Position numbers and translations under genes: made by a program
The notes under the pieces: model-generated
What the model was told of the DNA's origin: nothing
What the model saw: the letters and a program-made list of their open reading frames with translations, nothing else
The model's database searches: none
Shown here: one piece after another, positions 2,763 through 58,648 of the stretch
Position numbering within the stretch: the stretch's first letter is position 1
Layout: every line of letters starts with the position of its first letter
DNA from: Chiloscyllium plagiosum
Taxonomy: Eukaryota
NCBI RefSeq assembly: GCF_004010195.1
Contig: NC_057718.1
Coordinates: 48,406,278-48,470,277, forward strand
Length of the DNA: 64,000 nucleotides
Direction of reading: 5' to 3'

Positions 2763-2953
2763 ATTTGGAGATTCTGGTGTTGGATTGGGGAGTACAAAGT
2801 TAAAAATCACACAACACCAGGTTATAGTCCAACAGGTTTAATTGGAAGCACAATGATCACCTGATGAAGGAGCGACGCTCTGAAAGCTAGTGTGCTTCCA
2901 ATTAAACCTGTTGGACTGTGACCTGGTGTTGTGTGATTTTTAACTTTGTACCC
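2763..2953. mobile_element. Palindromic Penelope-derived non-autonomous element (family A)
   Basis: About 60-bp inverted arms (gtacaaagttaaaaatcacacaacaccagg...tggaagcaca and its complement) surround a hammerhead core. A related copy is at 29168-29330. Confidence 0.8.
2858..2892 (+). ncRNA. Minimal type-I hammerhead ribozyme motif (family A)
   Basis: CAC-CUGAUGA-A-GGAGC(GAC)GCUCU-GAAA-GCU-A^-GUG: stem I CAC/GUG, stem II, palindromic AGCU stem III, CUA cleavage triplet. Confidence 0.75.
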
Positions 2954-3041
2954 TATTCTTAGGGTCTTTCTTATTTCTATTCTTAGAGTCATAGAATCCA
3001 ACAGCATGGAGACAGGTCCTTTGGCCCAAACTGGTCCATTC

Positions 3042-4057
3042 TGTTGTGGTGAAAAACACCAGTCTGGGAGTCAGAAATGGAGTTCAATGACAGAGTCTAT
3101 TGCACAAGGAAATACCAGAGCTCTGGGGAGAGAAAGACACCAACAGCACAGTGGTCCGCTGTGAGTCTTCTCTCGAACTGGAGCACATGTCAAGAAACTT
3201 TTATACACCTTGTGATACAATAGGTCAGTGATGAGATTACTGTCTTTGTAACATGGTTTGTTTATGGTAATCATTGCTAAATCGTTGATAGCTTTGATAC
3301 AGTCTTTGTCAATTCCAGTGCAGCCTTTGTTAATTTCATAGTCAGTTTCAGTATAGACATTGTTAGTATTAATGTCTGCACGAAAATCTATTGCAGTAGT
3401 AATGGGCGCTAATCGCTCTTCCTGAGAAGGACGATTACTGCAGCCCTGGCTATTAGCATTCTGTATTAAGCTGTTAGCATTTCTATAGGCAGTGTGGGCT
3501 GGACCCAGACATTTCGGCGGGCAGTGTTCGTTACTCATGTGTATTCTCTCCCCCACCTACCTTAAATTAAGCAACTGGGTTGTGAGTGCATTGTGCTGGC
3601 ATTCTGGTGGCCACAGGCAGTGTCTGTATTTGCTCTGCTGTTTCTCTCCATATTAGAATAGATTACTTACAGTGTGGAAACAGGCCCTTCGGCCCAACAA
3701 GTCCACACCGACCCGCCGAAGCGCAACCCACCCAGATCCATTCCCCTACATTTACCCCTTCACCTAACACTATGGGTGATTTAGCATGGCCAATTCACCT
3801 GACCTGCACATCATTTGGATTGTGGGAGGAAACCGGAGCACCTGGAGGAAACCCACACAGACACAGGGAGAATGTGCAAACTCCACACAGAGAGTCGTCT
3901 GAGGTGGGAATTGAACCCGGGTCTCTGGCGCTGTGAGACAGCAGTGTAATTCAGCGGTCATCTTGTGTGTCAAGTTGGCCAACTGATGGCTCAGCGGCCA
4001 TCTTGTGTGTCCATGTGCCTAATGTCACCCTAATGTCCCAGGCCATCTCCCTCTTCA
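3042..4057 (-). mobile_element. Solo LTR containing a nested V-SINE
   Basis: TG...CA termini and a 4-bp TSD ATTC/ATGC splitting the CR1 3' UTR (ggtcc-atgc-tgacc). TATAAAA on the minus strand at about 3200. Confidence 0.7.
3651..3946 (-). mobile_element. HE1-like V-SINE (5' truncated)
   Basis: V-domain core (reverse complement of tgtgtggagtttgcacattctccc) plus a CR1-derived tail. Confidence 0.85.
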
Positions 4058-5404
4058 ATGCTGACCAAAATGTCCATGCACACTAACCCCATTTGCCTGC
4101 ACTTGGCCTATAGCCTTCTAAACCTTTCCTATCCATGCATTACTCCAAATGCCTTTTAAATATGATTAATGTTCTCACCTCAACCAGTACCGCTGGCAGC
4201 TCATTCCAAATGCATACCACCCTCTGTGTAAAGAAAATGCCCCTCAAGTTCCCATTTATTCTTTCCCCTCTTATCTTAAACTGATGCCTTCTCCAAGCCT
4301 GAGAAAAAGACTGAGCACATTCACCTTATCCATGCCTCTCATGATCTTTTACACTTCTATAAGATGACCCCTCAGTCTTCTAAGCTCTAAAGAAAAAAGT
4401 CCTGGCTTGTCCAAACCCACCCCCCTATAAGTCAGATTCTTGAGTCCTGGCAACATCCTTGTAAATTTCTTCTGCACTCTTTCCAGTTTAATAACATCCT
4501 TCCAACAACAAGGTGACCGAAACTGAACACAATACAGGGATGACCTTACACAGGTTTATAACATCGTAAGGGGCATAGATAGGATAAATAGACAAAGTCT
4601 CTTCCCTGGGGTGGAGGAGTCCAGAACTAGAGGGCATACGTTTAAGGTGAGATGGGAAAGATATAAAAGAGAACTAAGGGTGGTACGTGTATGGAATGAG
4701 CTGCCAGAGGAAGTGGTGGAGACTGGTACAATTGCAACATTTAAGAGGCATTTGAATGGGTATATGAATAGGAAGGGTTTGGAGAGATATGGGCCAGGTG
4801 CTGGCAGGTGGGACTAGATTGGGTTGGGATATCTGTTCGGCATGGACAAGTTGGACTGAAGGGTCTGTTTCCGTGCTGTACATCTCTGTGACTCTATGAC
4901 TCTAAGTGCGGCCTCACCAGCGTCCTGTACAACTGCAATCTAATTTCTCAAATTCCAAACTCAATGCCCTGACTGATGAAGGCCTGTGTGCTGAAAGCCT
5001 CCTTCACTGCCCAGTCCACCCATGACTCCACTTTCAGAGAACCATGCATCTGAATTCCAAGGTCCATCTGTTCCGTTACACTCCTTAAAGCCTTAACATT
5101 CACAATGAAACTCCCACCTTGATTTGACTTTCCAAATTGCAACACCTCACATGTATCTATTTCAAACTCCATTTGCCATTTCTCAGCCCACTTCACCAGC
5201 TGAAGAAGTTTGTGCTGCAATTTCTAATTTCTTCACCATCTTTAAAACCGCATATTTTAGTGTCATATGTAAATTTATTAATCATGTCTTGTACATTCTC
5301 ATCCAAATCATTGGTATGAATGATAAATGGCAAATGGCCCAGAAACGACATGGAGGCACAGTACAAGTCACAGGCCGCCAATCTGACAAGCATTCTTCCA
5401 CTGT

Positions 5405-5638
5405 TAGAGTGCAGAGTGTGGTGCTGGAAAAGCACAGCAGGTCAGGCAGCATCTGAGGAGCAGGAAAACCGACATTATGGGCAAAAGCTCTTCATCAGGA
5501 ATGGCTTTTGCTGTGATGAAGGGCTTTTGCCTGAAACATCGATTTTCCTGCTCCTCGAATGCTGCCTGACCTGCTGCGCTTTTCCAGCACCACACTCTTG
5601 ACTCTAATCTCCAGCGTCTGCAGTCCTCACTTTTGCCT
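5405..5638. mobile_element. Palindromic Penelope-derived element (family B) with two decayed hammerheads
   Basis: Inverted arms gtggtgctggaaaagcacagcaggtcaggcagcat.../...tgctgcctgacctgctg..ttttccagcaccac. Confidence 0.8.
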
Positions 5639-5967
5639 ATCCTTCCATCATTACCCTCTGTTTTCTACCATCAAGCCAATTGTGTTCCCAATTTGCCAGG
5701 TCTCCCTGGATTCCAAAATAGTTCAACAGGATCTTTGACATGCACCTGACAGGACCTCAGTTCAATTTTTCACCTGAAAAATGGCACCTCTAACAGTCAG
5801 CCTTGATTTTTGTGCCCAAATGATGGACTGTAACATGAACACTTAGCTTTCTCAATCAGACATTAGATCACTATCAACTGAATCATGACTGAGATTGAAA
5901 GAACAACATTGAGCACAACATCATGTATGGCCATGTGGATTCAATCTGTAATTTGTTAGAATCTGTG

Positions 5968-6200
5968 GGAAAAACAATGACTGCAGATGCTGGAAACCAG
6001 ATTCTGGATTAGTGGTGCTGGAAAAGCACAGCAGTTCAGGCAGCATCCGAGGAGCCGTAAAATCAACGTTTCAGGCAAAAGCCCTTCATCAGGTATACAG
6101 CTCTATTCCTGATGAAGGGCTTTTGCCTGAAACGTCGATTTTCCTGCTTCTTGGATGCTGCCTGAACTGCTGTGCTTTTCCAGCACCACTCTACTCCAGA
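5968..6200. mobile_element. Palindromic Penelope-derived element (family B) with a hammerhead core on each strand
   Basis: About 85-bp inverted arms (6011-6093 vs 6108-6191). Cores at 6063-6093 (-) and 6107-6138 (+). Confidence 0.85.
6107..6138 (+). ncRNA. Minimal hammerhead ribozyme motif (family B)
   Basis: UC-CUGAUGA-A-GGGC(UUUU)GCCU-GAAA-CGU-C^-GA: palindromic ACGU stem III and GUC triplet. Confidence 0.7.
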
Positions 6201-8639
6201 GTAGAATTTATGGGAACATTGGCACACTGGTAAACTACAGTGCACTGTGATGTTGTCATTCGTAGTCCACAACGTGCTTAATGCATTTGTGCCTTGTTGA
6301 TTTTTAATCTCACCCGTGTTCCTGGTCTGAAATAGATTAGAAGAACATCAGTGAGCTTATCAGTTGCTGACAGTGCTGCCCCTGTGGCCTCAACAGTTGT
6401 AGGTCCAGATGCAATATGTGATATATAAGCAAATAATAAATTCCTTGTAAATTGAAGCCTCTTTAGGAACTGCTTCTCTAACAGAGAAGTACAAGTAATG
6501 CTAACTATCTATTTGGGTATGGGGGTGCTGTTTTATGAATGCTGTGGTCACTCTGCTACGTCACCATTTTTCATTCTTTTTCCAAATAAAAGGATACCCA
6601 ATGGAAAACCCATTCTGTCCTCTTTAAAATGGTAGTGGAAAAATGGCACATAGCCAGTTACTGAAACAGCTGGCAACCACAAAAAAACATCCAAAACAAT
6701 CTTTAAAATATTGCTATAAATGTTGGGGCTGGGCTGTTCATATTCTCTTCTGTTTACTTCAGATATCTAGCAACATTGTAAATTTTATGCACGCAAAAAA
6801 TAAACCAACGAATCATGGCAAATGAAGTGCATGACACCATATTATATGTCTTGATTGCAACAGTTCAATAAATTTTAAAAGTTGCTGTTTCCTTTAGTTA
6901 AAAGAGATGGGCACAAACCTGTGTTAATCTTTGGCCAAGTTTTAGATGTGACTAATTTATTTCCCAAAATCCAGCAAATCTAACTGGAAAATCCAACCTC
7001 AAAGTTCACTTTTGAATGATTTGTGTTATGAAATATCCTCTGTTCTCTTTAAATCAAGGATTGTTTGTTAAACTCAATGCTTGTTTGCTGGTCTGCCAAT
7101 TATTAAATAACTTCCAACTGTGGAATACTCAGCAGGAAGTCTGTGTCAGAAATAACGGCCACTTTAGAGAGTTGGCTAAGTGCCCACCCTCACAAAAGCC
7201 AAAGCAGAATCTGAAAACTTCAAAACCATTATATTTTTGAACTATTACTCAAGTAAACATCCAGATTTCTACTTTGAAAATATTTTCAACATCCTTCAAG
7301 GGATAATGGAAATTCTAAAGATCACACAATTTAAGTGACTACTAAAAGCTGGCCCAAGCAAAGATTTTGAAATTGCAAACTTGTAAATCAGAAATTCCTC
7401 ATGTACAGTCTCCATTTTTCAAGCGATCTGCAATATTGCAGTCACGGTGTTGTCAAAATTTATTAAGCAGAAGCAATTTTTATTTGTAAACAAGTGAATA
7501 AATGTTACCCTGTCCCCATTTATTTGTGCTCCAGATACGCTACATGGTCAATAGTCCAGACTACTCCTGGTAGAGTTGCTGGGAATTAAAAACTACTGGC
7601 CCTGTACTTAGCAGCTCTTTTGGTTGGGATATCCCAACTCAGAGGGATGGAAGCTACTACATCAGTGAGCTGCCTTCTCCAGGGCAACTCAGGATTGGTG
7701 CTAAATGCTCGCTGAGCCACCAGTGCCCATGCCCCATGAATGAATAAAACAAATGTCAAAATAAGTTATAGCTTTGATGGCTTGTGGAGGCAGCTTACAT
7801 TCAATTTATGGCCAGAAGGTGGGGGCACCATTTCCCAGACAAGATTTCAATTTGTTTACAGCTATTTTAAATTTAAGTAGGTTAATTGACATGCTCTCCC
7901 AAAGTTATACGCCTCTATACTGGATATATGTTGAAAACCTGTTATCAACTTATAGAGTAGAATAATGCATGTTTTTTAAAATTATATGTGAGACATGGAT
8001 GTCACATTTATTGCCTGTCCCTAGTTGCCCTTGAGAAGGTGTTGGTGAGATGCCTTCTTAACTGCGCAGTTCATATGCTGAAGATACACCCACAATACCA
8101 TTAGGGATGGAATTCAAGGATTTTGACCCTCTGACAGTGAAGGTGACATATTTCCATGACAGTCTTTGCCAAAAATGTAACTAATGTATTCTATTAAATA
8201 TAATTCAATGATCACTATAACTTTACAGGATTTTGATCACATTTCTTGGAAACATCCTTCGTACACAGTGAGTTACTTCAATGAGCTCTCACTATTGTGA
8301 TATAAGTGAAGGTGACAGCCTTGCACAGTTGTGTTCCATAAACAATAAAACAATTGACTGATTAATCTCTTCTGTTAACATTTTAGGACAGCACTTGACA
8401 ATACAATACTTCCTCAATTATGTACAGGAGTGCAAGCACAAAATATGCAAATAATGCAAATAATAATCCTCAGATACTGAAGCAGTCCATGTTCAAGTAG
8501 CAACAAGATCTGGACAATATTCAGGTTTGGACTGACAAGTGTCAAGTAGTATTCATGCCACACAAATGCCAGGCAATGACCATCACCAATAAGAGACAAA
8601 CTAATCACCAGCCCTTGACATTCAATGGTGTTACCATCC

Positions 8640-11600
8640 GGTTTAAAGTAATCTGGCAGAAGGGTGAGACCCTAAGTAGTAGTGAAACAAAAGAGAAGGT
8701 TGGGGCTGGTACAGAAGTTAAAGAGAGCAAGTTAAATAGATAATGCAAGCAAAAGTACAGTAAAGAATGAGAGAAGACTGATGAACTGTATTTATATCAG
8801 TGCAAGAGGCCTGACAAGTAAAGCAGATGAAGTCAGGGCATGATTGGGAACATGGGACTGGGATCTCATACATATTACAGAAACATGGCTGAGGGATGGA
8901 CCGGTCTGGCAGCTCAATGTTCTGGGTTATAGATGCTATAAGAGGGATAGAAGGGGAGGCAAGGCAGAAGAAGGACTGGCATTTTTGATTAGGGAAAATA
9001 TTGTAACAGTACTTAGAGAGGATATTACTGCGGGATCATCCAGTGAAGCTATATGGGTGAAACTGAGATATAAGGAGTGATGATCATTTTAATGGTATTG
9101 TACTATAGACTCCCCAGTAGTCAGCAGGAAATTGAGGAGCAATTATATAGGGAGATCACAGATAGCTGTAAGAATAATCGGGTTGTAGTAGTAGGGGATT
9201 TTAACTTTCCAAACATAGACTGGGTCTGCCATAGTGTTGAGGGCTTGGATGGGGAGGAATTTGTTAAGTGTGTTCAAGAAAACTTTCTCAATCAATATGT
9301 AGATGAGTCCACTTGAAAAACTCAAACTCCTCTTGGGAAATAAGGCAGGGCAAATGAGTGAGGTGTCTGGTGCAGCACTTTGAGAACAGTGACCATAATT
9401 CTATTAGTTTTAAAATAGTTATAGACCTGATCCACAAGTTAGAGTCCTAAATTGGGGCAAGGCCAATTTTGATGGTATTAGACTGGAACTTTCAAAAGTT
9501 GTTTGTGGGAAGCTATTCGTAGGTGGGATGAGTGGCAAATGTGAGACTTTCAAAAGCAAGATAATGAGAGTTCAGGGACAGTGTGTTAGTCTTAGTGTGA
9601 AGGACAAGGCTGGAGTAGGGAAGACTGAATAATGAGAGACATTGAGGCTCTGATCAAGATAAAGAAGAAGGTGTATGTCAGGAGTAGACAGGTGTGATCA
9701 AGTGAATGCTTTGACGAGTTTAGGGGGTGTAAGAGTACACTTAAGACAGAAATTAGGAGGGCAAAAAGGTGGCATGAGATAACTTTTGGGCGGCACGGTG
9801 GCACAGTGGTTAGCACTGCTGCCTCACAGCGCCAGAGACCCGGGTTCAATTCCCGCCTCAGGCGACTGACTGTGTGGAGTTTGCACGTTCTCCCCGTGTG
9901 TGCGTGGGTTTCCTCCGGGTGCTCCGGTTTCCTCCCACAGTCCAAAGATGTGCAGGTCAGGTGAATTGGCCATGCTAAATTGTCCATAGTGTTAGGTAAG
10001 GGGTAAATGTAGGGGTATGGGTGGGTTACGCTTCGGCGGGGCGGTGTGGACTTGTTGGGCCGAAGGGCCTGTTTCCATACTGTAAGTAATCTAATCTAAA
10101 AAAAACTTTGGCAAAGAAAGTTAAGGAGAATCCAAAGAGATTCTACAAGTATATTAAGGACAAAAGAGTCACTAGGGAGAGAATAGGGCCCCTTAAAAAT
10201 CAATGAGGCCATCTGTGAAACCACAGGATGAGATCCTAAATGAATATTTCATGTCAGTACTGTGGAGAAAGACACGGAAGCTAGGGAACTTGGCTAAGTA
10301 AATAGTGACGTCTTGAAAAGGTCCTTGTTACAGAAGAGGAGGTGTTGGAGGTCTTAAAATGCATAAAGGTAGATAAATCCCTGGGACCAGATTAAGTGTA
10401 TCTAGATATTGTGGGAAGCCAGGGAATAAGATGCAGGGCACCTAGCAGAGATATTTGTCTCATCGACACCCATGGGTGAGATGTCAGAAGACTGGAGGGT
10501 GCTAATGTTGTGCCATTACTTAATAAAGGCTGTAAGGAAACACAAGGGAGCTACAGATGGATGAGCCTGCCCTCAGAAGTGGGTCAGTTGTTGGGGAGGA
10601 TTCTGAGAGACAGGATTTCCATGTATTTGGAAAGGCAAGGACTGATTAGGGATAGTCAGCATGGCTTTGTGCATGGGAAATCATGTTTCATTAGCTTGAT
10701 TGAGTTTTTTGAAGAGGTGACCAAAAGGTAGAAGAAGGCAGAATGGCAAAAGTTGTTTCCATGGCCTTTGACAAGGTTCTGCATGGTAGACTGGTTAGTA
10801 AGGTTAGAGCATATGGAATCTAGGGAGAGATAGTCAATTGGATATAAATTTGACTTGATGGGAGGAGACAGAGAATGGTGGTAAGGATTGTTTTTCTGTC
10901 TGGAGGCCTGTGACCAGTGGTGTGCCACAAGGATTGGTGCTGGGTCCCCCTTTTGTTCGTCTTTATGTAAATGATGTGGACGAGAATTTAGGAGACATGG
11001 TTAGTAAGTTTGCGGATGACACCAAAATTGGTAGTATAGTGGACAGTGAAGAAGGTTATCTAAGAGTTCAATGAGATCTTGATCAGCTAGGCCAGTAGGC
11101 TGAGGAACTGCAGATGGGGTTTAATTAAGATAAATGCAAAGTGTTGCAATTTGGTAAGACAAACCAGGGCAGGACTTACCCAGTTAATGGTAGGGCCCTT
11201 GGGAGTGAGCCCTTGCCTTCTTTGGTTAGAGCACTGAGTACAGGAGTTGGGACATCATGTTATGGCAGTACAATGCATTGGTAAGGCTACATTTGGAGTA
11301 CTGCATACAATCCTGGCCACCCTGCTATAGGAAGGATGTTATTAAACTGGAAAGGGAGCAAAAGTGATTTACAAAAGTTTTACCAAGTCATAAGAAGAGG
11401 CCAGATAGGCTGAGACTTTCTTCAATGGGATGTAGGACGATGAGGGGTGACCTTTTAAAGGTTTATCAAATCATGAGGGGTATAGATAAGGTGAAGAGAA
11501 AAGGTCTTTCCTCTAGGGTAGGGGACTCCAAAACTAGAAGGCATAGGATGAAGGTGAGAGAGGAAAGATTTAAAAGGAACCCGAAGGGCATCTTTTCACA

Positions 11601-12700: not shown

Positions 12701-12826
12701 CAAAGGATCCTTCCACATCCAGCAGAGATTTCCCTGCAGCCCCAAAGGATCCTTCCACATCCAGCAGAGATTTTCTTGCATGCCCAAAGCATCCTTCCAT
12801 ATCTGGCAGAGATTTTCCTGTACCTC
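12701..12826 (+). repeat. 42-bp tandem repeat x3 at the 5' end of a Penelope fragment
   Basis: Units of caaaggatccttccacatccagcagagattt.. start at 12701, 12743 and 12785. Confidence 0.85.
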
Positions 12827-13452
12827 CAAACACCTCTTACTGTGTACATTGCTCTCGATGTGGTCTCCTCTATGTTGGGGAGACAGGCCACCAACTTGCA
12901 GAATGTTTCGGAGAATATCTCTGGGACACACGCACTAAACAACCTCACCGCTCTGTGGCTGATCACTTCAACTCCTCCTCTCACTCCGCCAAGGACATGC
13001 AAGTCCTGGGCCTGCTCAACCACCAAATCCTGGCCACCTGACGACTGGAGGAAGAACATCTCATCTTCTGCCTTGGGGCCCTCCAACTACACGGAATCAA
13101 TGTCAATTTCATCAGTTTCCTAATCTCCCCCCACCTTATCCCAGATCCAACCCTCCAATTCAGCACCACCCTCTTGCATGGTACTATGTGTCCATCTTCT
13201 TTCCCACCAATCTACTCCACTTTGACGATCACCATCACCCTCCACCTTCGTCCACCTATCGCATTTATAGCTACCTTCCCCCTAGACCGACCCCCTCCCA
13301 TTTATCTCTCAGCTGTCTCAGGCCCCCACACCCCTCTCACATTCCGAGCTTATGCCTGAAACTTCAACTCTTCTGCTCCTTGGATACTGTCTGACTGGCT
13401 GTGCTCTTCTGGGGCCATACGTTTTGACTCTGATCTCCAGCATCTGCAGTCC
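12701..13452 (+). mobile_element. Penelope-like element 3' part (GIY-YIG endonuclease remnant + pseudo-LTR)
   Basis: C.RCGLLYVGETG.QLAE.F.E.L....VADHFN..SHS.KDMQV motif, followed by a C-rich UTR and the family-B tail. Confidence 0.85.
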
Positions 13453-14817
13453 AGTATCAGGCTATATCAAACAGTATCAGGCTGTATCCTTCTTTAGTAC
13501 TGTATCAGCTGGTCATTGCCAGGCCAATGAGATGATTTACTATTGGCTGCTGAGCAGTGCATGCTTTAAAATGGTTACACAGTTGTTCACTCGGCCATTG
13601 CAGACATTGATACAGGGATTGCTACTTTCAAGGAAATGGAAGGGTTATGTTTGCAATAAAACAACACTTGAAATCAGGCTGTGAAATATCAAAACTATGT
13701 TGATACATTGGTATTAGTTTATTTTGTTTGCTATATTTAGAATAATGTTAAACAAACTAATTTATTATCTAGCAGTGCCTATCTTATGGTATCTCTGCAG
13801 TGGAACCTTTTGAGTGACAGTTCCAGAAATAGTAAATTGTCCAACAAAAATAAGAAAACTAGGGACTCCTGCCTCTTATTGGCTTAGTCATCTAAAAAAA
13901 AAATCACACCACATAGCATGCATTATTGTAGTTGATACTCCAGCTTCAAGTTCCTTTCCACATAATTTTGCAAGTTTCGCTGGGAGTGGCTGATCTAACA
14001 CCAATGGTCTCTCCTGTTGCTGTACATTTCCCACAGAAGTTTTAGTTTTTATAAGATGGAGAAAAGAACAATAAAATTCAATGATTGGTTTTACATTTAT
14101 CCAGCACTCTTAATGTAGTAAAACTGCCATGCCATTTCACGAGTGAAGTCAATCATACAAAATCTAACATTAGGAGGCGTGACCAAAGCATGGTCAAAGA
14201 ATGGTTTTAAAGGAGCAGACGTAGAAAGATTTATGGAGGGAATTATTGAGCTTCAGACTTATGTGGTGAAGGTACTGCTGTCAGTGGTGAAATAAAGAGT
14301 CTTATGTTAGAATTGGAGGAATGCAGAATCCTCAGAGTGTTTTCATGCTGGAGGTGTTTACAGAACTGGAGTGTGTATGACCACGGAAGAATTCAAACAA
14401 AAGGCTGAAAATTATAAATATAATGTTCAGATTACTTATATGCCAATGTAGATCAGTGAAGTGTATTGCTCAAAAAGGAACAAAGTATTGTATTTGTAAA
14501 GTTAGCTTGGTTTTGGTTTTGAATTTGCTGGGTGAATTGTGCTGTCTGTGAAGATATCTATGCCCCAGTGATATGCTCATTTTCATCTGCAACTACTGAT
14601 CTCAAATACAGCAGACTTAGCTCAAAGCCAAGACCAGCAAGAGTGAGAGAAGATGCAGAAAGAGAGGAGACACCCCCTTTTTAAGAAACTAGCTGACAGT
14701 GTCTATTCAGGTACGTTTTTAAAGATCTCAAGTATACTATTGAGTGAGTGGGCAAATGACAGGTTTTTTAATTCACTCATGGGACAAAGATGTTGCTAGC
14801 TGGGTCAATATTTATTG

Positions 14818-14947
14818 AGGAGAAAGTGAGGTCTGCAGATGCTGGAGATTAGAGCTGGAAATGTGTTGCTGGAAAAGCGCAGCAGGTCAGGCAGCATCCA
14901 GGGAACAGGAGAATTGACGTTTCGGGCATAAGCCCTTCTTCAGGAAT
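14818..14947 (-). mobile_element. Penelope pseudo-LTR fragment with hammerhead core
   Basis: Reverse complement reads CUGAAGA-A-GGGC(UUAU)GCCC-GAAA-CGUC. Flanked by the direct repeat aatatttattg. Confidence 0.75.
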
Positions 14948-18460: not shown

Positions 18461-18464
18461 TAGG

Positions 18465-18750: not shown

Positions 18751-19166
18751 GCCCCTCCCCCTCCCTTCCATTCCTCCCTGCCACCAACCAGATTCATTCC
18801 TCCCATTGACCAACTACCCTCTACTTATCATCACTTATCCCTATTTCACCTCCCTGTCCAGTCACCTCCTTTATCTGCAGCTCCCCCTACACCCTCCCCC
18901 AGTCTGACGAAGGGTTACACCTGAAACGTAAACTTCTCCACCTCCTGATGCTGCCTGGCCTGCTGTGTTCCTCCAGCCTTCTGTCTGTCTACTTTGGATT
19001 CCAGCATCTGCAGATGCTGGTGAGGCAGGATCATATGACACAGAATTTATAGTAAAAGATCTTTTACTATAAATTCTGTATCCTATGATCCTGCCTCACT
19101 ACCTACCCGACGAAAGAGCAGTGCTCAGGAAGCCTACACTTCCAAGGTAACGTGTTGGACTGTAAC
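18751..19166 (+). mobile_element. Penelope pseudo-LTR cluster (family C hammerhead at 18901-18934; 78-bp hairpin; decayed family A hammerhead)
   Basis: CUGACGA-A-GGGU(UAC)ACCU-GAAA-CGUA. Palindromes at 19001-19020 and 19021-19098. Confidence 0.75.
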
Positions 19167-19848: not shown

Positions 19849-19873
19849 GGGCGTCTCCGAGTAACTGCTGCCG

Positions 19874-29167: not shown

Positions 29168-29330
29168 GGTTAAAAATCACATAGCACCAGGATATAGTCC
29201 AACAGGTTTATTTGGAAGCACTAACTTTCAGAGCTAGTGCTTCCAAATAAACCTGTTGGGCCATAACCTAGTGTAGTGTGATTTTTAACTTTGTACACCC
29301 CAGTACAACACCAGCGTCTCCAAATCATGA
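29168..29330. mobile_element. Family A palindromic Penelope derivative with the hammerhead core deleted
   Basis: Arms match 2792-2951. The centre is reduced to ctaactttcagagctagtg. Confidence 0.75.
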
Positions 29331-30529: not shown

Positions 30530-30876
30530 AGGAGAAAGTGAGGACTGCAGATGCTGGCGATCAGCGGGGAGACAGGCCGCCTACTTGCGGAACGTTTCAG
30601 AGAACACCTCTGGGACACCCGCACCAACCAACCTAACCGCCCCGTGGCTGAACACTTTAACTCCCCCTCCCACTCCGCCAAGGACATGCAGGTCCTGGGC
30701 CTCCTCCATCGCCAGACCATGGCAACACGACGCCAGGAGGAAGAGCGCCTCATCTTCCGCCTAGGAACTGTCCAACCGCAAGGGATGAATGCAGATTTCT
30801 CCAGCTTCCTCATTCTCCTGCTCCTTGGATGCTGCCTGACCAGCTGCGCTTTTCCAGCAACACATTTTTCAGCTCT
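30530..30876 (+). mobile_element. Penelope-like element fragment (GIY-YIG C-terminus)
   Basis: GETGRLLAERFREHL...VAEHFNSPSHSAKDMQV...EERLIFRLGT.QP.GMN.DF, with an inverted 5' pseudo-LTR piece. Confidence 0.88.
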
Positions 30877-48400: not shown

Positions 48401-48481
48401 AACACAATATTCCAAGTGTGGTCTAATTAGGACTGTATAAAGCGGCAGCATAACCTCGTGGCACTTCAACTCAATCCTTCT

Positions 48482-51400
48482 GGGAGATCCAAGATGGCGG
48501 GCTGAGTGGTCTGCTGTGCTGGGTTCTGTGCCCTACCCCCTGGCAAGGTGTTCCTTTACCCCTGCCCTTGTTAACCACCCCAGGAGAAAAATTGATAATA
48601 TAAAGTTACTGAACATCTGGAGCTGCTAAAATTATGGTTTGACAGTTCTAAGATCAGGATGAAGGTGAATAAAGGAAAAGGGGCTAAAGGAGTACAGTAA
48701 GCAGGGCTAATGTGTCAGGGGTGCCCGGAGCCATTGCTCAAACTCCCGGGGTGGCCCCTTTGGATCTAATGGGGCAGAGTTTGCCAACTCTGGTCCAGTG
48801 TTTGATATTGGCTCCATCGCTGCTTCAATCTTCTCTCAAAGAGTAGAAGCAGTGGAGCAGAGGACTGCGGCATTGGAGACCGTGGCGGAGGTCTCGGGAG
48901 GAAGGATCCGAACACTGCGAGACCAGGTTCAGGTCCTTCAGGAACAAGTTGATGACCTGGAAAACAAAAGTACAAGAAAAAAATGTATGGCCTGGTTGGT
49001 CTCCTGGAGCGGGAGAAAGGTGAGGACCTCTTTGGATTCTTGGAGAAGTTGCTTCCAAAGTTCCTGGGGCTGGAGTTGGAGTTGGGCTTGGTGAGTATGG
49101 AGTGGGCCCACCGGATCGCAATGTGCAGGTCTGGACTGGATCTGTGTCCATGCCTGTCCGGAGTGCAACTCCAGCATTATAAAGAAAAACAATTAGTCAT
49201 TGAAACAAGAAGAAGACTGGGAAGAGATCCACAGGCTTTAACATACAAAGGCTCAAGAATAATGTTCTTTCAAGACTTCTCATGAGCCATAGTTAAGAAG
49301 AGAAAGATATTTGAGGAAGTTAAGAGAAAATTAAGCGATCTGAACATTCAGTATTCCTTGAGGTACCCGGCAGTGTTGCGTTTTGCTCACGGGTGAGCGG
49401 TATTTAATTTTGATTCAGCAGAAAAGGTAAAGGACTTTGTGAACTCTTTGAAGTAAAGGACTCTGGTTGGGAGTGGGGGGAAGGTTGGGGTTGGTGAAGG
49501 GACACCATTACGGGCAATGGTACAGATTTTCCTTAGTTTTTCTGGCGCCCTTTTTATCCTCTCTCCACTTTTTGTGGTTATCGGTTTTATAGCTTTTGTA
49601 TTGCCTTGATGTAAAACCTGATTTATTTATCACTTTGGAAGGTTGGTTATTGTCTGGGTTTTTTTTCTGCTGCTGTCCTTTTTTGGGGGTGGCAATGTCT
49701 GTGGTTAAGATGTATGATAAGAGTAGTGGAGTGGAGAGGGTGGGCGTCCATTGTTAACTCTCAGGAATGTAAATAACATGTTCTCTTTATCTGTTCATTG
49801 CCTGGGGCTAGGGCGCGGCCTCAGCTGGAAGGAGCCAGGATGGTTGCAAGGATTGGGCAAGGGGGGAGATCTCTAGTGAATTGGGAGCTATTTGGGTATT
49901 TGTTTAAGTTAAATATAGTGATTAGTTTTTTAGTTGTAGTTTTTAGACTTTAAAGAGTTAATGTCTTTTTCATTTGCTATACATCAAATAATGTTCCTCC
50001 TGTTGGGAAATCACTGGTTTCCCTGGATGACCATGACTCGTGATCTGTTCAGATGGTGTACCTGGAATGTAAAAAGGAGCCACTCCCCTATTTTAAAAAA
50101 AAAGGTGCTTACAAGCCTCAGGAAGGAAAGGGCTGACATCACCCTGCTGCAGGAGACACATTTAACTAATAAAGAAGATCTGAAACTATAGCAGGGTGGT
50201 TATGATAGGGTATTCTTCTTCTTCAGCTCTAAGAGTAGAGGAGTGGCTATACTGGTAAGAAGGTAACTGAGCAAATTAGGGAAGAACTTGGACTGTTCTT
50301 CATTCTTAAAGCTCTAATACATGGAGAAGAGTATGGCGTCCTGAATGTTTATTGTCCCGTGCACCCTCTAAAATTTCTAATTGATGCAGTTGCTAAATTA
50401 ATGAATCTTGGGGTATGCCGTACAATCATAGGAGGGGATTTTAACCGCCTAATGGATCCCGGGGTAGACGGGATGCCAAGGGGTCCAGCAGGTATGCCCA
50501 TGCAATCTTGACAGTTGGTGGACTTGTGTGAGGAGTTGGATTAGTGGATGTGTGGAGGCATCTCCACCTGAATGGAAGAGACTTTATTTTCTATTCCAAC
50601 CCACACAAGTGTCACACGTGAATTTACATGTTCCTTAAATGCCATCAGTTTGTTTGGACAGAACGTTGGCTTGCAGAATTGAGAATATAACTACCTCGGA
50701 CCGTGTGCCAGTGTATTTAGATGTTAAAATCAAGGGTGGCAGAATAAATGCATGAACCCATTCCTGTTAAGGGATAACAAATTTGTTGAGAACGTTACAA
50801 AAGAGTTCAGGGCCTTCTGGGATATCAAATCGGGTACGGCCAGTAATCCAGCAATACTTTGGGAGGCCACTAAAACATATTTACAAGGCCTGATCATTTT
50901 GTACTCCTCTACTAGAAAGAGGTGGGTGGGGATGGGGCAGCAAAGGAGACCCGGCTGAAGGTAGCTGAGGAAGCATATTGGTTATGGAAGCATATGCCTT
51001 CATTGGTTAAGCTGCAGTGGGTCATGGCTCTCTGGGCTGCTCTTGACTCAGTGCATACACAGATGGCAAAAAAAAGGTCTCCTTTGCTAAACAAAGATTG
51101 TTTGCTTGAATTTGGAGGTAAGCCAGGTAGATATGTGGCATATCTGGCTAGAAAGAAAAATGCTTCGTAATCCATTATGTCTGTTAGAGAGAAAGCTGGC
51201 ACAGTTACCCATGAGTTGAAGAAGATCAATGTTAGATTTAGGGGATACTTTGCAGATTTATACCAGTCGGAGGGTGGCAAAGATTGTGCAGTGAGAATGC
51301 AGTCCTTTTTTGAGAACCTGGACCTCTCCAGTATAAACGCGGAACAGGCCTCCCTGTTAAATGCGCCCAAGAAGATACAAGAGGTGCAGGAAGCAATAAA

Positions 51401-54400
51401 ACATCTCCAAGATGGCAAAGCACCGGAACCAGATGGATTCCGAGTGAGTTTTATAAGGAATTCATAAATGTGTTGGTGGAGCCATTTTTGGGGATGTGTA
51501 GCTATTCATATACACCGGGTTATCTTCCACCCACTCTTAGGGAGGCTAATATCTCCCTCATTTTAAAGAAGTGGAAAGACACAAAAAAAAAGTGCTCCAT
51601 ACAGAAAAATTTGTTGTTGAATGTGGACTTTAAAATTCTGTCAAAGGTGCTGGCCCTGAGGTTGGAAAAGTATTGCTCCATATTATAAAAGAAGATCAGA
51701 TGGGTTTTATCAAGGGCCGTAGCTCCTCTAACAATATCAGGAGGGTACCGAACATAGTTCAGGTATGCCAGCAAAGATTGATCGTGGGCCTGGTGGTCTC
51801 CCCAGACGTGGAAAAGGGGTTTGACTGGATAGAATGGCCACACCTGTTTGGAGTCCTAGAGCACTTTGCTTTGGGGGGAGCCTTTGTTAGGTGGGTGGTG
51901 GTGTTGTGTAATGATCCTAACGAGGCAGTCATCACAAACAGTGCTAAGTCGGATAACTTTAGTATTGGGAGAGGTAGTTGACAGCGATGTCCTCTTTCAC
52001 TGCTGTTATTTACCTTGGTAACTGAGCCATTAGCCGAGGCTATCAGGAGGGATCCTGAAATAGTGGCACCAAGGGTGGTAATGGGGGAGCATAAGATCCC
52101 CCTATACGCTGATGGTTTCCTTTTTTCTTGGCCAATCCAGAGGAGTCTGTTCTTTGATTCAAAAAAATTAATTTATTTGTCCGCTTTTCGGGATACAGGA
52201 TTAACTTCACAAAATCGGAAGCCATGCCAGTGGGAGGATTAGTGGAGGTGCCTGATCTGAAGAATGAAATGCAGTTCCCATTTAGATGGTTGTCAAAAGG
52301 TTTTTTGTATTTGGAAATTTTTATTACCCCTGCCTTCCACAGCTGTATAAAGCCAATTATGTACAATTACTGGACAGAATAAAACAGGCTTTTCAGTGGT
52401 GGGAGGGATTACCGGTTATCATGGTTAGGCTGAATAGACTTGATTAAAATGAATGTTCTTCACTTGTTGTACCCCACGAGCATGCTCCTGTTGTTGCTAC
52501 CCAGATGAGTGCTATGGAGGCTACGTGGTTGGCTAGGCTCCTTTTATTTGTTGTCGCAGACGCCCCCTAATTAAATTACTAAATGGCAACTCCTGCAGGG
52601 TGGGGGTGGATGGACCTTCTGGACTTGAAGAGATATCAAATAAGTGCCCTGTCAGTGTATATGGGTGATTGGGTATGGGGGGAGGAATCGGGGTCGATTT
52701 GGCTTGACGTTGAAGCCTCACAGTCAAGATGTCCCCTTGTTAATCTATTATTCATGGATAAGGTGAAATCCGTGACCGAGCAGTGTAAGAGCCAAACTAG
52801 ATAAATACGGTGAAAGCTTGGAGGATAATGAGGCAAAACGAGGGCAATTGGCTTAAGACCTCACTATTTAACCCGTTGATGGGAGCCCCAGGATTTAAAC
52901 CTGGGGCAATGGACTCCGGCTTTAAGGTATGGGAGAATAAGGGAATCTCTTGTTTGGGAGATTTATTCGAGGGGGAGGTCTTGATGTCATATAGCCAACT
53001 AAGTCAGAAATTGGGATATTTTCCGGTACTTTCAGATAAGGGATTATATTCAGAAGAAGACCATACTCCTGGCTCGGCCTTACAAGTCAGACGTGGAGAA
53101 AAGAGTGCTCCAGTGTACGGGCACTCTTTCAGTTAATACTTTGTACAATTTACGGAAAGATCACGTCTTAGGTGATGTGGAGAGACTCTGTAGGAGTTGG
53201 AATCGGGAACTAGGAGAGGTATTTCATATTAAACGTGGGAAGATATATGGGAAAATGTAAAGAAAATCTTAATATGTAACAAAGTGCAGACCGTGCAATT
53301 GAAGATTTTACACAGGGCTCATGTGGCGTCGGAGAGAGGCACCAGTTCAAGAGAGGAGCAGCTGCAGGATGTCCCAAATGTAAACTTAGTGTAGGCACTC
53401 TCTCACTGCTTTTGGTCATGTTGCAAGATCCAGAGATACTGGAGTGTCATAGTAAGGGAGCTGAAGGAAATCCTGGTAGTTGAAGTCAAAGTGGACCTGG
53501 TATTTCTGCTTCTGGGGTTGCCAAATTTGCCCTCTCTGTGGGAACACAGGAAGAGATTGCATAACATTCTTACACAATGTGTGTGGAAGCGCATTTTACT
53601 GAATTGGACATTGGAAGAACTCCCAGGTCTTATGGGTGGCACAGGCTGGTGATGGAACATCTCCCCCAAGACTATCTCACACAAATATGGTGCATCGCAA
53701 AACGGAGCAGTTTTATTTTTTCTAACCTGAAACAAGGGGGGAGACGAAAAAACCTCATCTCCTCAGTAGGAAACACCAACAGCAGTAATAAGACACACTG
53801 ACTGTGTGGTCCAGGCAGTTCAGAGGTCAGTCTCCACTTCTCCCTAGCACACACAAATGAAGAGTCCTTCACACACTGATCCAGCACCTTCAGAGCCAGC
53901 TCTGAGTATCAGATTGTCTGATACTCCTCTCTTTTTTTAACAGGACGTCTGAGCCTTGTGTGTTTTTCATTTTATTTCTTACACTACTGCCTGACAGTGA
54001 TAAACTGAGCAGTTTTATAAGACATGGTGGCCCTTTCTAAATTATATTGACGCAGACTTATCAGCATTATTAATTAGGGCCTTGATATAGCCGTGGGAAT
54101 CAGCTTGGGCTCCTGTGGGGACTTGAGTGTGGGAAGCAGGGGGAAAAAGAAAATACAGGCACAATGACTGGTGCTCCCAGGGATGGGAGTTTTAGTGGAA
54201 GTGTGGTGAGTGAAATAGAATAAAGTAATGTGATATAATTTAATTTAAGCTAATTTGAATTCAGCTTAATTTAATTTTTATTTAATTTGATTGTAGTTTA
54301 AGTTAAGTAGATACGTTTTTTTCTGGTAGACTAGTAGGTAGTTTATCATTAATGTATTGTGTTATGACATTGTACTTTTTTTTGTATTTTGGTGTTTTTA

Positions 54401-54457
54401 TATATAATTGTTTTGTAAAATATCTGAGCATTTTTAATAAAAAAAGTATTAAAAAAA
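48482..54457 (+). mobile_element. Full-length decayed L1/Tx1-clade LINE in mARC intron 6
   Basis: 5' GGGAGATCCAAGATGGCGG (YY1-like). ORF1 VDDLENKS.RK..GL.E and YKGSRIMFFQDFS. ORF2 TWNV, LLQETHL, LLNVDFKILSKVLA, Q.CPLS, LYAD and a CxxC..H...C knuckle. AATAAA + poly(A). 14-bp TSD at 48468-81 / 54458-71 (11/14). Confidence 0.92.
53717..54001 (-). mobile_element. 285-bp retroposed insertion inside L1 ORF2
   Basis: 17-bp TSD aaacg/tgagcagttttat (53700-16 / 54002-18), with a short T-tract at the left end. Confidence 0.7.
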
Positions 54458-56278
54458 AACTCAATTCCCCTACTAATAAAAGCCAACACACTATATGTCG
54501 TCTTAACAGCCCTTTCAATTTGGGTGGCAACTTTGAGAGATCTATCGACGTGGACCCCAAAGTCCCTCAGTTCCTCCACACTGCCATGAATCCTGCCTTT
54601 AACCCTGTATTCTGTATTCAAATTCGACCGTCCAAAATGGACCACTTCAAACTTTTCCAGGTTGAACTCCATCTGCTACGTTTCAAGCCAGTTCTGCATC
54701 CTGTCATTGTCCCGTTGCAACCTATAACAGCCCTCCACACTATCCACTGCTCCACCAACCTTCGTGTCATCGGCAAACTTACTAATCCACTCTTCCACTT
54801 CCTCAGCCATGTCATTTATAAAAATCACAAAGAGCAAAGGTCCCAGCCTGGATCCCTTCGGAACACCACTGGTCACTGAGCTCCAGTCTGAAAGTTTCCA
54901 TCTACTGCCACCCTCTGTCTTCTATGTGCCAGCCAATTCTGTATCCAGACAGCCAAATTTCCCTATATCCCGTGCTTCCTTACTTTCTGAATGAGCCTAC
55001 CATGGGGAACCTTATCAAACTTCTCTGCATAAAATTTCATGTGCCACTTGCCAGCCTATTGATATCAATATGTCCATGTCCTTTTGAAGTTACACACTAC
55101 CTCTTCACAGTTCAGTGTAACCAGTAAATTCGCAAATTTTGAACTTATGCCCTGTATACTTATGTTTAGGTCATTAATATATATCAGAAAGACCATTGGA
55201 ACTCCACAATGAGTGGAGTCCAAAAATGATCCATGACTTTCTATTCTCTGTTCCATCATTCTGCTGTATTTCATAATCATAGTATCAATGTCTCCTTTAT
55301 TTCATGAGCAAAAACGTTGCTCATAAATCTGTTGTGCAATGCTTCAACAGATGTCTTCTGGAAGTCATTGTACAGCACATTAATGGCATGATAACAACTC
55401 AAACATGATTTTCCTTTAACAAGTCTGTTTTGGCTTTCCTTCATTAATCCGCAGTTATCTAAGGTCCTGTTAATCTTGCCCCAGACATTAATTTTTCCTG
55501 GATTATTAATTCTAGAAGCTTCCCTACCACTGAGATTAAACTGTCCATCTTGCTGTTGCTGTTATCTTTACTTTGTCCTCTGAACCTATGTGTAACATTT
55601 ATCTATCTCCTTTCGTCTGGCACCACCTCTGAGTCTGAAGAAGACTAGAAAATTACAGAAGTACTTCTGCAATTATTATTATTCTCACTTCTCTCAATAT
55701 CCCTTGATTCAACCCATTTGGGAAATGGTGCTTTATCAATTTTAATTAGTTATCTTATCCAATTCTGTGTCCTTACCAACTTTAAACCTTGCAACTGTCT
55801 TCGAGTTACACCCTCTTTCACTATGACTCTGTACAGCACCTTGCTCCTTTGCAAAGCATTAATTTAATACATCAACCATACCTGCAGCTCCATGTAAATT
55901 CCCTTTTTGGTACTATCTACTTTGCTTACAGAAGACTTTTGGATTGCCTTTTTATATTATCTGTTAATCTCTCTTCATTCTCTCTTTGCTTCTCTTGTAT
56001 GCTTTTTCACTTCCTCTCTGAACTTACCATATGCAGCCCGATTCTTATTTGTATTATCCACCTGATATCTCCATTTTAATCTCTTTGTTCCTCATCAAAT
56101 TCTCTTTCTAATTTATTTTAAGGAAAATGGGTATTAGCTAGTTGAGCAGCAACAACCGCAAACTCTTTAAGTGTTTCAGTGAACAACATAACCTGAAGGA
56201 CATTTAACTGTGTTGTAACTATCTTCCTGATTATAGCACTAACACAGTCCATTTATCACATCATATGCTTCCAAAATC

Positions 56279-56370
56279 AGTCCTGAAGAAGGGTTACACC
56301 CAAAACGTAGACTTCTCCACCTCCTGATGCCCTGGCTTGCTGTGTTCTTCCAGCCTCCTGCTTGTCTGCC
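56279..56370 (+). mobile_element. Penelope pseudo-LTR fragment with family C hammerhead (G12 mutated)
   Basis: AGUC-CUGAAGA-A-GGGU(UAC)ACCC-aAAA-CGU-A^-GACU, with a perfect 4-bp stem I. Confidence 0.7.
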
Positions 56371-57319
56371 ATATTTATCAACCAATTAAATCTTAGGACA
56401 TTAAACTGGTTTCATCACTAAAGTATCGAGATTAAATTTAACACCTATTTTGCAATACATCTTATTCTTAGAACATGAGCTACCAGGGTTATTCAGAGTA
56501 GGCATGCTCAGAATGAGTTTTCTGATTGGTGGCACCTGAAGGGTTACGGAATGAAATTTAATTCATAATTTAATTCACATTTCCATGTGATGTGTTTACC
56601 ATATATTTAGAATGGTTTTGGAAGGCAATTCTTTATCACTTTAACTTGTGAAGTCTTGGACCTTTCTTGAATAAGTGACCTGCAGAGTGGCATGTTAATG
56701 TTTACTTTGTTTAAAAGGATACCTATTTATGGACTCTAACTTTTAATGCAACCTTTCAGAATTAACAAGGCAATCATTTTAGGTGGCTGTGATTGTCCTT
56801 TCCACTTGCAGTCAAAAATAATCTTTTCTATATAGTGCAGCACTATTCCTTTCTGGTACTACTTGTCATTTTGTGTGATAATGTAATTGTATCCTGGAAA
56901 AAACATTTAAAAAAAAAAATTCATTTAGTAGTGCTAACTTTTGCCTAATGCTACCAAATAGTATAAATACTTTAGTGTTGCATAACTCTGGAATGTATTA
57001 ACCTGCAATCAACAGCACAGCTACAGTATTGCATTGAGTATGGAAAGTTTATGAATTAATTGCTGTGGTTGGTTTTGAAGCCAGAAACACACAGTACAAG
57101 CATAGATTAGTGGTTCTAAGCTTTAAAATATAACCAAAAATGGGATTGTACTTTAATTTTATAATGGATGTTGGTATGAATTGCCTTCACTGTTTTCATT
57201 CATGTAGCCTTGATTAATTTTGGTTCATTCTAAATATGGTCTTTAAATTTTATGTTACTCTTTGGTGTGAAAGAGTTCTAAAGACTGCTTGTGTCAATTA
57301 CTTTGCTTTGTTCTTTCAG

Positions 57320-57449
57320 ATACCGTCAGTGTGACCCATCTGAAAAACACATTTACAAATCTGTCCCCGTGATTGGTTCACACTATGGGATTGAAAAACG
57401 TGGAGTGATTCGTGTAGGGGACCCTGTGTATTTGATTGTTGATCAGTAG
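57320..57449 (+). CDS. MTARC1/2: mARC exon 7 coding part (130 nt incl. TAG)
   Basis: Acceptor ttctttcag|A. Translates (R)YRQCDPSEKHIYKSVPVIGSHYGIEKRGVIRVGDPVYLIVDQ*, with the typical G.I.VGDPVY C-terminus. Exons sum to 1020 nt, in frame. Confidence 0.95.
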
Positions 57450-58471
57450 GAATGAACGATAACAGAAAAAGCGCTGTTTCTCTTTTAAAAGGATGAAAAA
57501 TTTAATGTCTTTACTTGTGGAAACACTTATCATTGTGCCATTAATTGCTTGTAAAGGTCATCAGTTGAGGATTTAAGTGAAGCTAGAGTTTTTCCTGCTG
57601 AACGTTGCTTTAATTGAATAATTATTTTCTTAAAAGATGAGCTCGTGAATTATTGGCCTATTTCTACAATTTTTTATTGGTATGAAACATTTAATCATTG
57701 TTGAAAAGTACTGAATATTATTGCTAGGCATTTGCTTTAAAAACCTACAAGGAGTTAGTCACTTCCATACCTTTAAATTTTATTCCATCCTTACTTCTGA
57801 GCTTCCTCCCCCACACCCTCCTCCAAATATGCAGTTACTTTTAACGAAAAGCTGCGAGAATTGTCTTTGATGATCTAGCAAGCCCACCCCATGCAAAGAG
57901 CTGAAGTAACCGATCCAAGTAGTGACAAGTTCACTGAAATACTTAAAGTCAGTGACTTTGTGTTTGTCAATATTAATTCTGCTCCACATCAATCTTTTCA
58001 AATTCAACAGGAACATTTGCTAATCCTTAACTGCACACAACAGTGTTAAATGTGTGTCTATATCCAGAACAGTTGAAAATGGGTGGGAAGAGGGATGATA
58101 TTTCCAGCATATTAAAAGAAGTGAAAATAGCTGATAATGTGGTACCCAATTGTGAAAGGGTAAAATCAGCCATAAAAGTAGGAAGTTCACCAATGTATAC
58201 TTCATTTATTAGTATTGCTATACTTTCTCTGAAATAAAAAGTATTTCTGTGAACCACTTCAGTTGGTTAAAATGCTGAGCTGCCATCTGCCTCAAAATTC
58301 AAGTATGTGCAGATTTTAGGTTTCATGTTTCTCCCACTCTTCCTCTTTTAGACAGTGACATGCACTCACAGTTTTTTTTAAAACTTGGTTTTTATTCTTA
58401 AAGTAGTAAATTCAGAATAACATAAAGAAGCCCATCTAACTTGCAAGAAGGCTAAGCTTCTATTGAATTTT

Positions 58472-58648
58472 GGGTGAAAGCGAGGACTGCAGATGCTGGA
58501 GATCAGAGACAAGATTAGCGTGGTGCTGGAAAAGCACAGCAAACTTCATCAGGATTCTTGATGAAGGGCTTATGCCCGAAACATCGATTTTCCTGCTCCT
58601 CTGATGCTGCCTGACCTGCTGTGCTTTTCCAGTACCATACTAATCTCT
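58472..58648. mobile_element. Family B palindromic Penelope derivative in the putative mARC 3'UTR
   Basis: gtggtgctggaaaagcacagca ... tgctgtgcttttccagtaccat arms. Decayed core ttgatgaagggcttatgcccgaaacatc. Confidence 0.8.

Follow-up and report, generated by a model that had tools for sequence, protein, structure and literature searches.

Penelope-like elements (PLEs) are known to carry minimal type I hammerhead ribozymes with a CUGANGA-H core, an extra base between positions 9 and 10.1 that is a general feature of these ribozymes (PMC4209133), a G10.1-C11.1 pair, a palindromic 15.2-16.2 stem and a short helix I. A genome may contain several such families, mostly as solo copies or opposite-strand pairs; about 4,000 motifs are reported from the coelacanth and 9,000 from Xenopus, and the searched text of this literature mentions no cartilaginous fish. 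The insertion unit of endonuclease-bearing (EN+) PLEs, as described earlier (Craig 2021, PMC8557442; Arkhipova 2013, PMC3846280), includes an inverted, 5'-truncated copy joined head to head, a 30–40 nt tail at one end only and a target-site duplication, which is 8–10 nt in rotifers. Poseidon of Anolis (PAc) resembles the elements described below in its two internal reverse transcription starts that bound the tail, the cutting and extension of both strands (starts and extension having been seen in vitro), the lack of RNA ends at the cut site and a protein-assisted ribozyme that is dispensable for insertion (Frangieh 2024, PMC11167929). Non-LTR retrozymes, too, are high-copy repeats with a relation to PLE pseudo-LTRs (pLTRs) and a type I hammerhead, numbering up to 120,000 copies in the axolotl; these (PMC7229834, bioRxiv 10.64898/2026.07.22.740005) are tandem 170–400 nt units with canonical ribozymes and circular RNAs, whereas the shark copies are dispersed or inverted and their ribozymes minimal.

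The window, a 64,000 nt stretch of the Chiloscyllium plagiosum genome, contains members of three families (F1, F2 and F3) of this kind. Earlier publications already describe the class, its extra base, the inverted arrangement and the tail at one side, so the motifs alone are unsurprising. Our search of the open-access literature found nothing on ribozymes in shark PLEs, on strand transfer in PLEs or on poly(A) sites in pLTRs; the supplement of bioRxiv 10.64898/2026.07.22.740005 may list chondrichthyan families. Compared with the units described in PMC8557442 and PMC3846280, the one-sided tail rule is counted here (67 of 70 pairs), target duplications are longer (12–17 nt), and most units are reduced to some 215 bp and have a sharp 5' boundary.

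The small hammerhead motifs of the window are real and above chance. Strict minimal hammerheads match 57 times in 1,070,533 random non-N genomic bases (111 stretches, chromosomes only), against 0–1 matches in each of ten dinucleotide shuffles, from which we estimate ~1.8e5 intact motifs genome-wide; tail copies are estimated at ~1e6 per genome. If these figures hold, the genome is among the richest known in hammerhead motifs. An earlier reading of the window made without database searches (the sequence-only reading) had proposed high-copy minimal type I hammerheads of PLEs, and both the identification and the high copy number are borne out. The invariant core (C3, U4, G5, A6, G8, A9, G12, A13, A14, A15.1, U16.1 and H17) is present in all twelve subfamily majorities, an agreement partly built into the search patterns. 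The extra base is A in ten subfamilies and U in two, so that the base itself stands as first described and its identity as A does not extend to two further families. The G10.1-Y11.1 pair is G-C in ten subfamilies and G-U in two, and the 15.2-16.2 pair of the palindromic stem III is C-G in nine and G-C in three. In helix I the 2.1-1.1 pair varies among C-G, U-A and A-U (paired in 11/12) and the 2.2-1.2 pair among A-U, U-A and C-G (paired in 12/12), and positions 10.2 and 10.3 of helix II, which is only 4–5 bp long in F1–F3, show three to four pair types each with all twelve subfamilies paired. These stem changes appear to be compensatory in both helices across twelve subfamilies of mutually related families, in agreement with the covariation originally proposed. 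The suggested check against Rfam Hammerhead_1 was negative: a covariance search of the window and four loci gave no Hammerhead match at E<=10, and none to Hammerhead_1 or Hammerhead_3 is expected since the motifs have no helix III loop.

Cores are present at all nine window sites first noticed, where we located the C3 positions; those with C3 at 2861 and 6109 pass the strict descriptor and the other seven are not intact. The intact F1 hammerhead (2858..2892, plus strand) has stem I CAC/GUG, the extra A, stem II GGAGC/GCUCU, the palindrome AGCU and a predicted cut after 2889. It lies in a head-to-head pair at 2763..2951 with an 11-nt target duplication (1 mismatch), whose minus arm (2852-2763) has a long tail and no core and whose plus arm (2856-2951) has a short tail and an ATTAAA hexamer at 2901..2906 (plus); in reads of the family, not of this copy itself, the poly(A) site is 13–15 nt downstream of the hexamer. 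The intact F2 hammerhead (6107..6138, plus; C3 6109, stem I UC/GA, palindrome ACGU, predicted cut after 6136) has stem II GGGC/GCCU, not GGGC/GCCC as first read. Its pair, at 5967..6202, has a long left tail, a short right tail and a decayed target duplication of ~15 nt, and the minus core (C3 6092) has a 1 bp stem I and a GUU triplet that reflects CpG decay of GUC and not a family trait. The F2 pair at 5415..5638 has a short left and a long right tail and two decayed cores (C3 at 5498 on the minus strand, with GAAA broken, and 5513 on the plus strand, C3>G), and that at 58474..58646 has a 16-nt target duplication (1 mismatch) and a plus core with C3>U at 58558. A solo F2 copy with a long tail (14815..14947, minus; C3 14943, stem I broken at 1.1) begins 4–5 nt upstream of C3. 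An F3 pLTR copy (18757..19013, plus; core 18904-18930, C3 18904) is a GUA variant with a damaged stem I, and stem I pairs are lost in the 6092, 14943 and 18904 cores; at 19019..19166 (plus) an F1c-type pLTR fold-back (19019-19100) is followed by a decayed core (C3 19107). A solo F3 copy at 56278..56367 (plus; C3 56283) starts from stem I (AGUC/GACU) and has G12>A, a GUA triplet and a predicted cut after 56309, which, like the other two cuts, had been placed correctly. The earlier account missed an old 5'-truncated F2 element (12802..13452, plus) with a GIY-YIG endonuclease end, pLTR, decayed ribozyme and long tail, an F1 head-to-head pair (29170..29330) that lacks the 5' half of the core and has a perfect 12-nt target duplication, an F2 endonuclease fragment fused directly to a tail without pLTR or ribozyme (30563..30876, plus), and the partner arms 2763-2852 and 58474-58541.

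In all three families the copies are fragments of the pLTR/5'UTR of PLEs that encode proteins, and not the non-coding satellites that had been supposed. Each runs upstream into a GIY-YIG ORF (within the window for F2), and F1 and F2 also into reverse transcriptase (RT). A near-full F1 element has two ribozymes 3,282 nt apart and encodes DKG, the RT core, a CX4CxxC linker and GIY-YIG. Like EN+ PLEs, F1 and F2 have a single ORF with DKG, an RT core and, at the C terminus, a GIY-YIG with two internal cysteines, and the pLTRs are direct or inverted, with an optional tail and target duplication; for F3, linker and EN alone were seen. Pfam matches the EN weakly (E 0.007 on one fragment, no match on F1), and long "open frames" were often runs of N. 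The linker, present in all three families, fits the CX2-5CxxC before EN of Neptune (common to Nematis), and by this motif F1–F3 appear to be of Neptune type, in which they differ from PAc (PMC11167929); the published Acropora Neptune motif has a GGGC stem II start and a CGUC identical to those of F2. The parts lie in the order TATA-like box, ribozyme, two tail ends, and RT plus GIY-YIG ORF. The ATG is at +93 (F1) or about +136 (F2) and the ribozyme lies wholly in the 5'UTR, while in PAc it overlaps the start codon (PMC11167929). This TATA-ribozyme layout is not universal, since the D. virilis Penelope promoter is TATA-less and internal (PMC2377424).

Copies are dispersed singly or head to head, and 160 of 327 random copies sit in 80 inverted pairs. 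A target duplication score of >=8 is reached by 34 of 85 pairs and by 5 of 416 shuffled ones, and one long and one short tail are found in 67 of 70 F1–F3 pairs (p 1e-16). Pair arms share their subfamily in 38/41 cases (expected 0.36) and loop II in 15/17 (expected 0.25), and pair junctions differ between loci. Since a pair holds one sense and one antisense copy, which fold into a long hairpin, cleavage as stem III dimers cannot apply within it. Among 266 F1–F3 copies, 124 have 5' ends at -40..-21, 8 at -60..-41, 51 beyond and 83 downstream. This pile-up, seen in solo copies too, is broad (about -40 to -21), extends into the core, and lies just upstream of the ribozyme, ~30 nt past a TATA-like box (TATAAA or TTTATC, the F2/F3 form TTTATC being non-canonical) at -38 (F1), -35/-37 (F2) and -35 (F3) from C3. 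There is no real excess of F1–F3 copy ends at the cut site; an apparent peak (5 at +1 by alignment) consists of 2 inversion junctions and 3 internal deletions or joins. Poly(A)+ reads span the cut site at undiminished depth, and the 3'-tag reads, from a library blind to 5' ends and to cut products of 30 nt, have no start or end pile-up there.

We consider it reasonably probable that these are minimal hammerheads in the pLTR of coding PLEs whose short copies are dead-end cDNAs of the uncut mRNA 5' end. Transcription would start 3–8 nt upstream of C3, the element protein would cut both DNA strands 12–17 nt apart, and reverse transcription would be primed from both target ends, at about +60 for one and about +97 for the other, counted from the ribozyme site. 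After 90–130 nt each cDNA would run off the RNA 5' end, and the two would fuse head to head (about 215 bp) or a single one would be resolved; longer copies would arise by priming at the downstream pLTR of read-through RNA. In master elements the ribozyme would be kept by selection, probably cutting the full transcript weakly, with protein assistance or as a pair; in the stubs it would be a passenger. With ~1.8e5 intact motifs and ~1e6 tail copies, the genome naturally documents a very large number of PLE insertions. This record places RNA landmarks, the 5' boundary at TATA+30 and two priming sites, to which F1 adds a poly(A) site that follows the ribozyme and precedes the priming sites; with these placed, pLTR regeneration and the role of the ribozyme in transposition become testable.

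F1 reads acquire poly(A) at +29 to +32 (833 + 118 of 2,713 reads), stopping 30 nt past the uncut ribozyme and ahead of both priming sites, and an ATTAAA or AATAAA hexamer is present in 97/103 F1 copies. This layout suggests a U3-R-U5-like pLTR with short strong-stop-like copies. A possible, if unlikely, extension likens the pLTR to a retroviral LTR: a U3 with the TATA box, a short R that begins at the cap, spans the hammerhead and reaches the poly(A) site, a U5 whose end is at the priming sites, and stubs, hundreds of thousands of them, that are integrated, failed strong-stop cDNAs; family 1 copies would then supply poly(A) sites to transcripts. As a polyadenylated mRNA would end before the priming sites, long copies would arise only if the strand jumped from the 5' end onto the R region at the 3' end, or if double ribozyme cleavage and ligation yielded a circle that is then copied round. 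Such a scheme would regenerate the pLTR, for which no mechanism is evident according to PMC2377424, and would give the ribozyme a purpose; a circle model has been proposed (PMC4209133), and an F1 mRNA that begins at the predicted start and ends at the poly(A) site would hold two sense ribozymes. Against LTR-like or circular replication, which we likewise rate as improbable, F2a/b/d and F3 have no hexamer, the cut site has no copy 5' ends, PLE intron retention fits unprocessed templates, and mosaics between the pLTR and tail of different subfamilies were not seen (apparent cases at R were classifier errors). Both arms extend beyond the 5' boundary in 3 of 66 pairs and one only in 8, a joint excess over chance (Fisher p 0.02) and unlike independent jumps; such joint crossing is expected if the template type, read-through or circle, is fixed per event.

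It is doubtful that the ribozyme fold itself sets the 5' boundary, with RT stalling or switching template at a folded or paired hammerhead and the 3' pLTR of read-through RNAs as template. Copies would then stop at stem I irrespective of the promoter. The modal end of F2 and F3 (3–4 nt upstream of C3) is indeed also the stem I edge, many ends lie inside the core, and a cap-derived extra G is not enriched (F2 9/27 non-inverted junctions, 7.8 expected; F1 3/9, 2.4 expected). However, F1 solo copies with target duplications begin 8 nt upstream despite a stem I of 3 bp, stem I is only 2–4 bp and a double-hammerhead fold is not favoured, and in F5, with TATA at -53, the promoter-proximal ends (about -19, -23 and -23; n=3, two from one pair, most F5 copies extending past the predicted start) follow TATA+30, 20 nt from stem I, with none at the ribozyme edge. 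Very improbable is the original proposal of non-coding ribozyme satellites or retrozymes amplified by tandem-dimer self-cleavage: the cores are real and covary, and Xenopus retrozymes derive from pLTRs (bioRxiv 10.64898/2026.07.22.740005), but same-strand neighbours within 1.5 kb number 19 among 327 copies and are mostly unrelated insertions, no window site lies in a tandem array, tandem units each with a ribozyme occur in neither the window nor the random sample (one regular array turned up, its 36-nt units lacking the core), copies are collinear with coding elements and have junctions that vary by locus, and the canonical 6-bp helix I is absent.

Also set aside were Rfam miRNA matches, which are the palindromes; a match at 4973(+), where U16.1 is absent and the context different; and core-versus-tail deviation as a sign of selection on individual copies, which is confounded by pattern-based selection. 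The GUA triplet that was first taken as a family 3 trait is a copy variant, as H17 in 36 copies is C in 17, U in 16 and A in 3, at a CpG site. We note that true GUU families (F4, F5 and F7), distinct from those of the window, do exist.

The hammerhead motifs are real; the ribozyme class itself is known, and these families in Penelope-like elements (PLEs) are probably unlisted so far and present in very high number. Descriptor scans and direct reading find hammerhead cores at the sites picked out by the sequence-only reading, but when the descriptor is made strict by requiring the core, a stem II of 3 bp, 15.2–16.2 pairing, UH and a stem I of 2 bp, only those with C3 at 2861 and 6109 pass, the other window copies having lost core or stem I bases. 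A sample of 111 stretches of 10 kb, taken at even intervals along the chromosomes (1,070,533 non-N bases of the 3.56 Gb genome), contains 57 strict motifs against 0–1 per shuffle (10 shuffles), or 53/Mb and ~1.8e5 per genome (bootstrap 1.35–2.4e5); 39 belong to family F2, nine to F1, eight to F5/F6 and one elsewhere. With truncated and decayed tail copies included the sample count is 327, or ~1e6 per genome. An Rfam search left the motifs unrecognised. The CUGAUGA...GAAA look-alike at window 4973–5000 is a chance match without U16.1 in a different repeat.

The three families first proposed, F1, F2 and F3 (stem II GGAGC, GGGC and GGGU), are borne out but incomplete, as at least four more exist. 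The core is identical throughout twelve subfamily majorities, and base changes compensate one another in helix I, helix II and the stem III palindrome. With related families, and with search patterns biased towards the core, this supports the proposed covariation but is no formal test of it. Family triplets are CUA in F1, GUC in F2, F3 and F6, and GUU in F4, F5 and F7; GUA, once offered as a family triplet, occurs in just 3 of 36 F3 copies, and the GUU at 6063 is a product of CpG decay. The extra base between 9 and 10.1, said to be always A, is A in ten subfamilies and U in two, and such a base is already published as a general feature of these ribozymes (PMC4209133). Further ribozyme-bearing PLE families were seen in the random sample and at loci L053, L083 and L281–L310: F4 and F7 are old, with a GUU triplet and stem I AGUU/AACU, and F5/F6 have an extra U at 9.1, a long, bulged stem II and TATA at -47 to -53, F5 being young, with many copies 97–100% alike.

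The copies are not the non-coding satellites they were taken for; tandem satellites are absent here, and copies run into coding ORFs. In the window, F2 lies after a GIY-YIG endonuclease (EN) fragment at 12802 and 30563, a fragment with 99,377 candidates genome-wide in a first-look count, and F3 and F1 copies run on into a GIY-YIG ORF too. A near-complete F1 element, L238, contains in order an upstream terminal repeat (pLTR), ribozyme, tail, ATG (+93), DKG, reverse transcriptase (RT) core (Pfam RVT_1, E 2e-7), a CX4CxxC linker, EN, and a second pLTR with a ribozyme 3,282 nt past the first. F2 has the same protein motifs, with its ATG at ~+136, and the Atlas neighbours are animal RT/GIY-YIG clusters. 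By its sequence, the linker marks the elements that carry it as putative members of Neptune or Nematis; the F5/F6 EN end, where no such linker was seen, differs and is presumably Poseidon-like. Long elements (L121–L129, L221–L240) are often kilobase palindromes interrupted at their centre by N runs, which leaves full-length copies under-represented in the assembly. Between the ORF stop and the promoter, the F1 pLTR at L173 and L175 has a long, CA-rich tract resembling a microsatellite, and a 42-nt tandem (2.9 copies, window 12701–12820) adjoins the F2 EN fragment on its upstream side. At window 30563–30876 the EN end runs straight into the tail through a short motif common to both, with pLTR and ribozyme dropped; F5 loci L282 and L303 have similar internal deletions.

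Nearly half of the random copies (160 of 327) form 80 head-to-head pairs of median span 215 bp, in which one arm ends ~+60 and the other ~+97 past the cut site (67 of 70 F1–F3 pairs). The pairs are flanked by 12–17 nt target-site duplications (TSDs), with a score of at least 8 in 34 of 85 pairs, five of them in the window, versus 5 of 416 shuffled. Since the two arms share subfamily (38/41) and loop II (15/17) and central junctions vary from locus to locus, each pair is a single insertion event, assembled on arrival. Inversion, one-sided tail and TSD are already described for PLEs (PMC8557442, PMC3846280), and an anole PLE in vitro cuts and extends both strands, with two internal RT starts that match both tail ends here (PMC11167929). 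If transcribed, window 5967–6202 and other pairs (~75/Mb) would give near-perfect 90–130 bp RNA hairpins, a possible source of dsRNA. The inverted pairs resemble MITEs, and Rfam scores them as miRNA precursors. Beside an F3 pair, L044:4234–4342 repeats a 36-nt piece of the F3 tail in a short tandem array whose units lack the core.

Relative to the cut, 124 of 266 F1–F3 copies have 5' ends at -40 to -21, 8 at -60 to -41, 51 farther upstream and 83 farther downstream; the per-base end hazard is 0.03–0.07 within the peak versus ~0.004 upstream, and this holds for pairs as well as solo copies; the cut site itself has no genuine peak. A box 33–38 nt upstream of C3 (TATAAA in F1, F4 and F7; TTTATC in F2 and F3) places the +30 point 3–8 nt upstream of C3, on an initiator-like base, which in F2–F4 is the first of stem I. 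F5 tells a promoter from a ribozyme edge because its TATA is at -53: its promoter-proximal ends are at ~-19, -23 and -23 (n=3), none at stem I, and the remaining F5 copies run through. Two points weigh against the promoter reading: these F5 ends number three, and a cap-G test failed. By inference, the majority of stubs copy the first 90–130 nt of uncut mRNA.

RNA set X19 is one poly(A) single-cell run, ~2% read; its species label is that of DNA runs with good matches, and its species may differ from that of the window. Poly(A) begins at +29 to +32 in 376 + 457 of the 2,713 reads aligned to the F1 module, plus 118 of F1b type, at a site 13–15 nt past ATTAAA/AATAAA that has a GU-rich stretch behind it and no richness in A; 97 of 103 F1 copies have the hexamer, and F2a/b/d and F3 lack it. 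Read depth stays level over the predicted cut, which means that the motif is uncut in many of the polyadenylated molecules; this signal may come largely from a few loci, and the reads may be host read-through. The tail site works in poly(A)+ reads at L174:1791–1811 (same family as window 2901–2921), and at ~50 F1 copies/Mb such tails may terminate host transcripts.

In calculated F1 folds the double hammerhead (-12.5 kcal/mol; monomers -6.9 each) is disfavoured against alternatives at -29.3, and an inverted pair hides the motif inside a -167 kcal/mol hairpin. Published minimal hammerheads cleave weakly as dimers (PMC4209133), and that of the anole requires protein (PMC11167929). Predicted activity, if there is any, is therefore likely limited to full transcripts that hold the motif twice in sense orientation; there, cleavage would take off the capped 5' 30-odd nt and, for F1, the poly(A) end. 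According to PMC2377424, no mechanism by which pLTRs are regenerated is evident. As both priming sites lie beyond the F1 poly(A) site, a long copy can arise only from read-through RNA, by way of a circle or through a strand jump. Both arms of a pair cross the 5' boundary jointly more than chance (p 0.02, 66 pairs), which read-through RNA or a circle fits better than independent strand jumps do.
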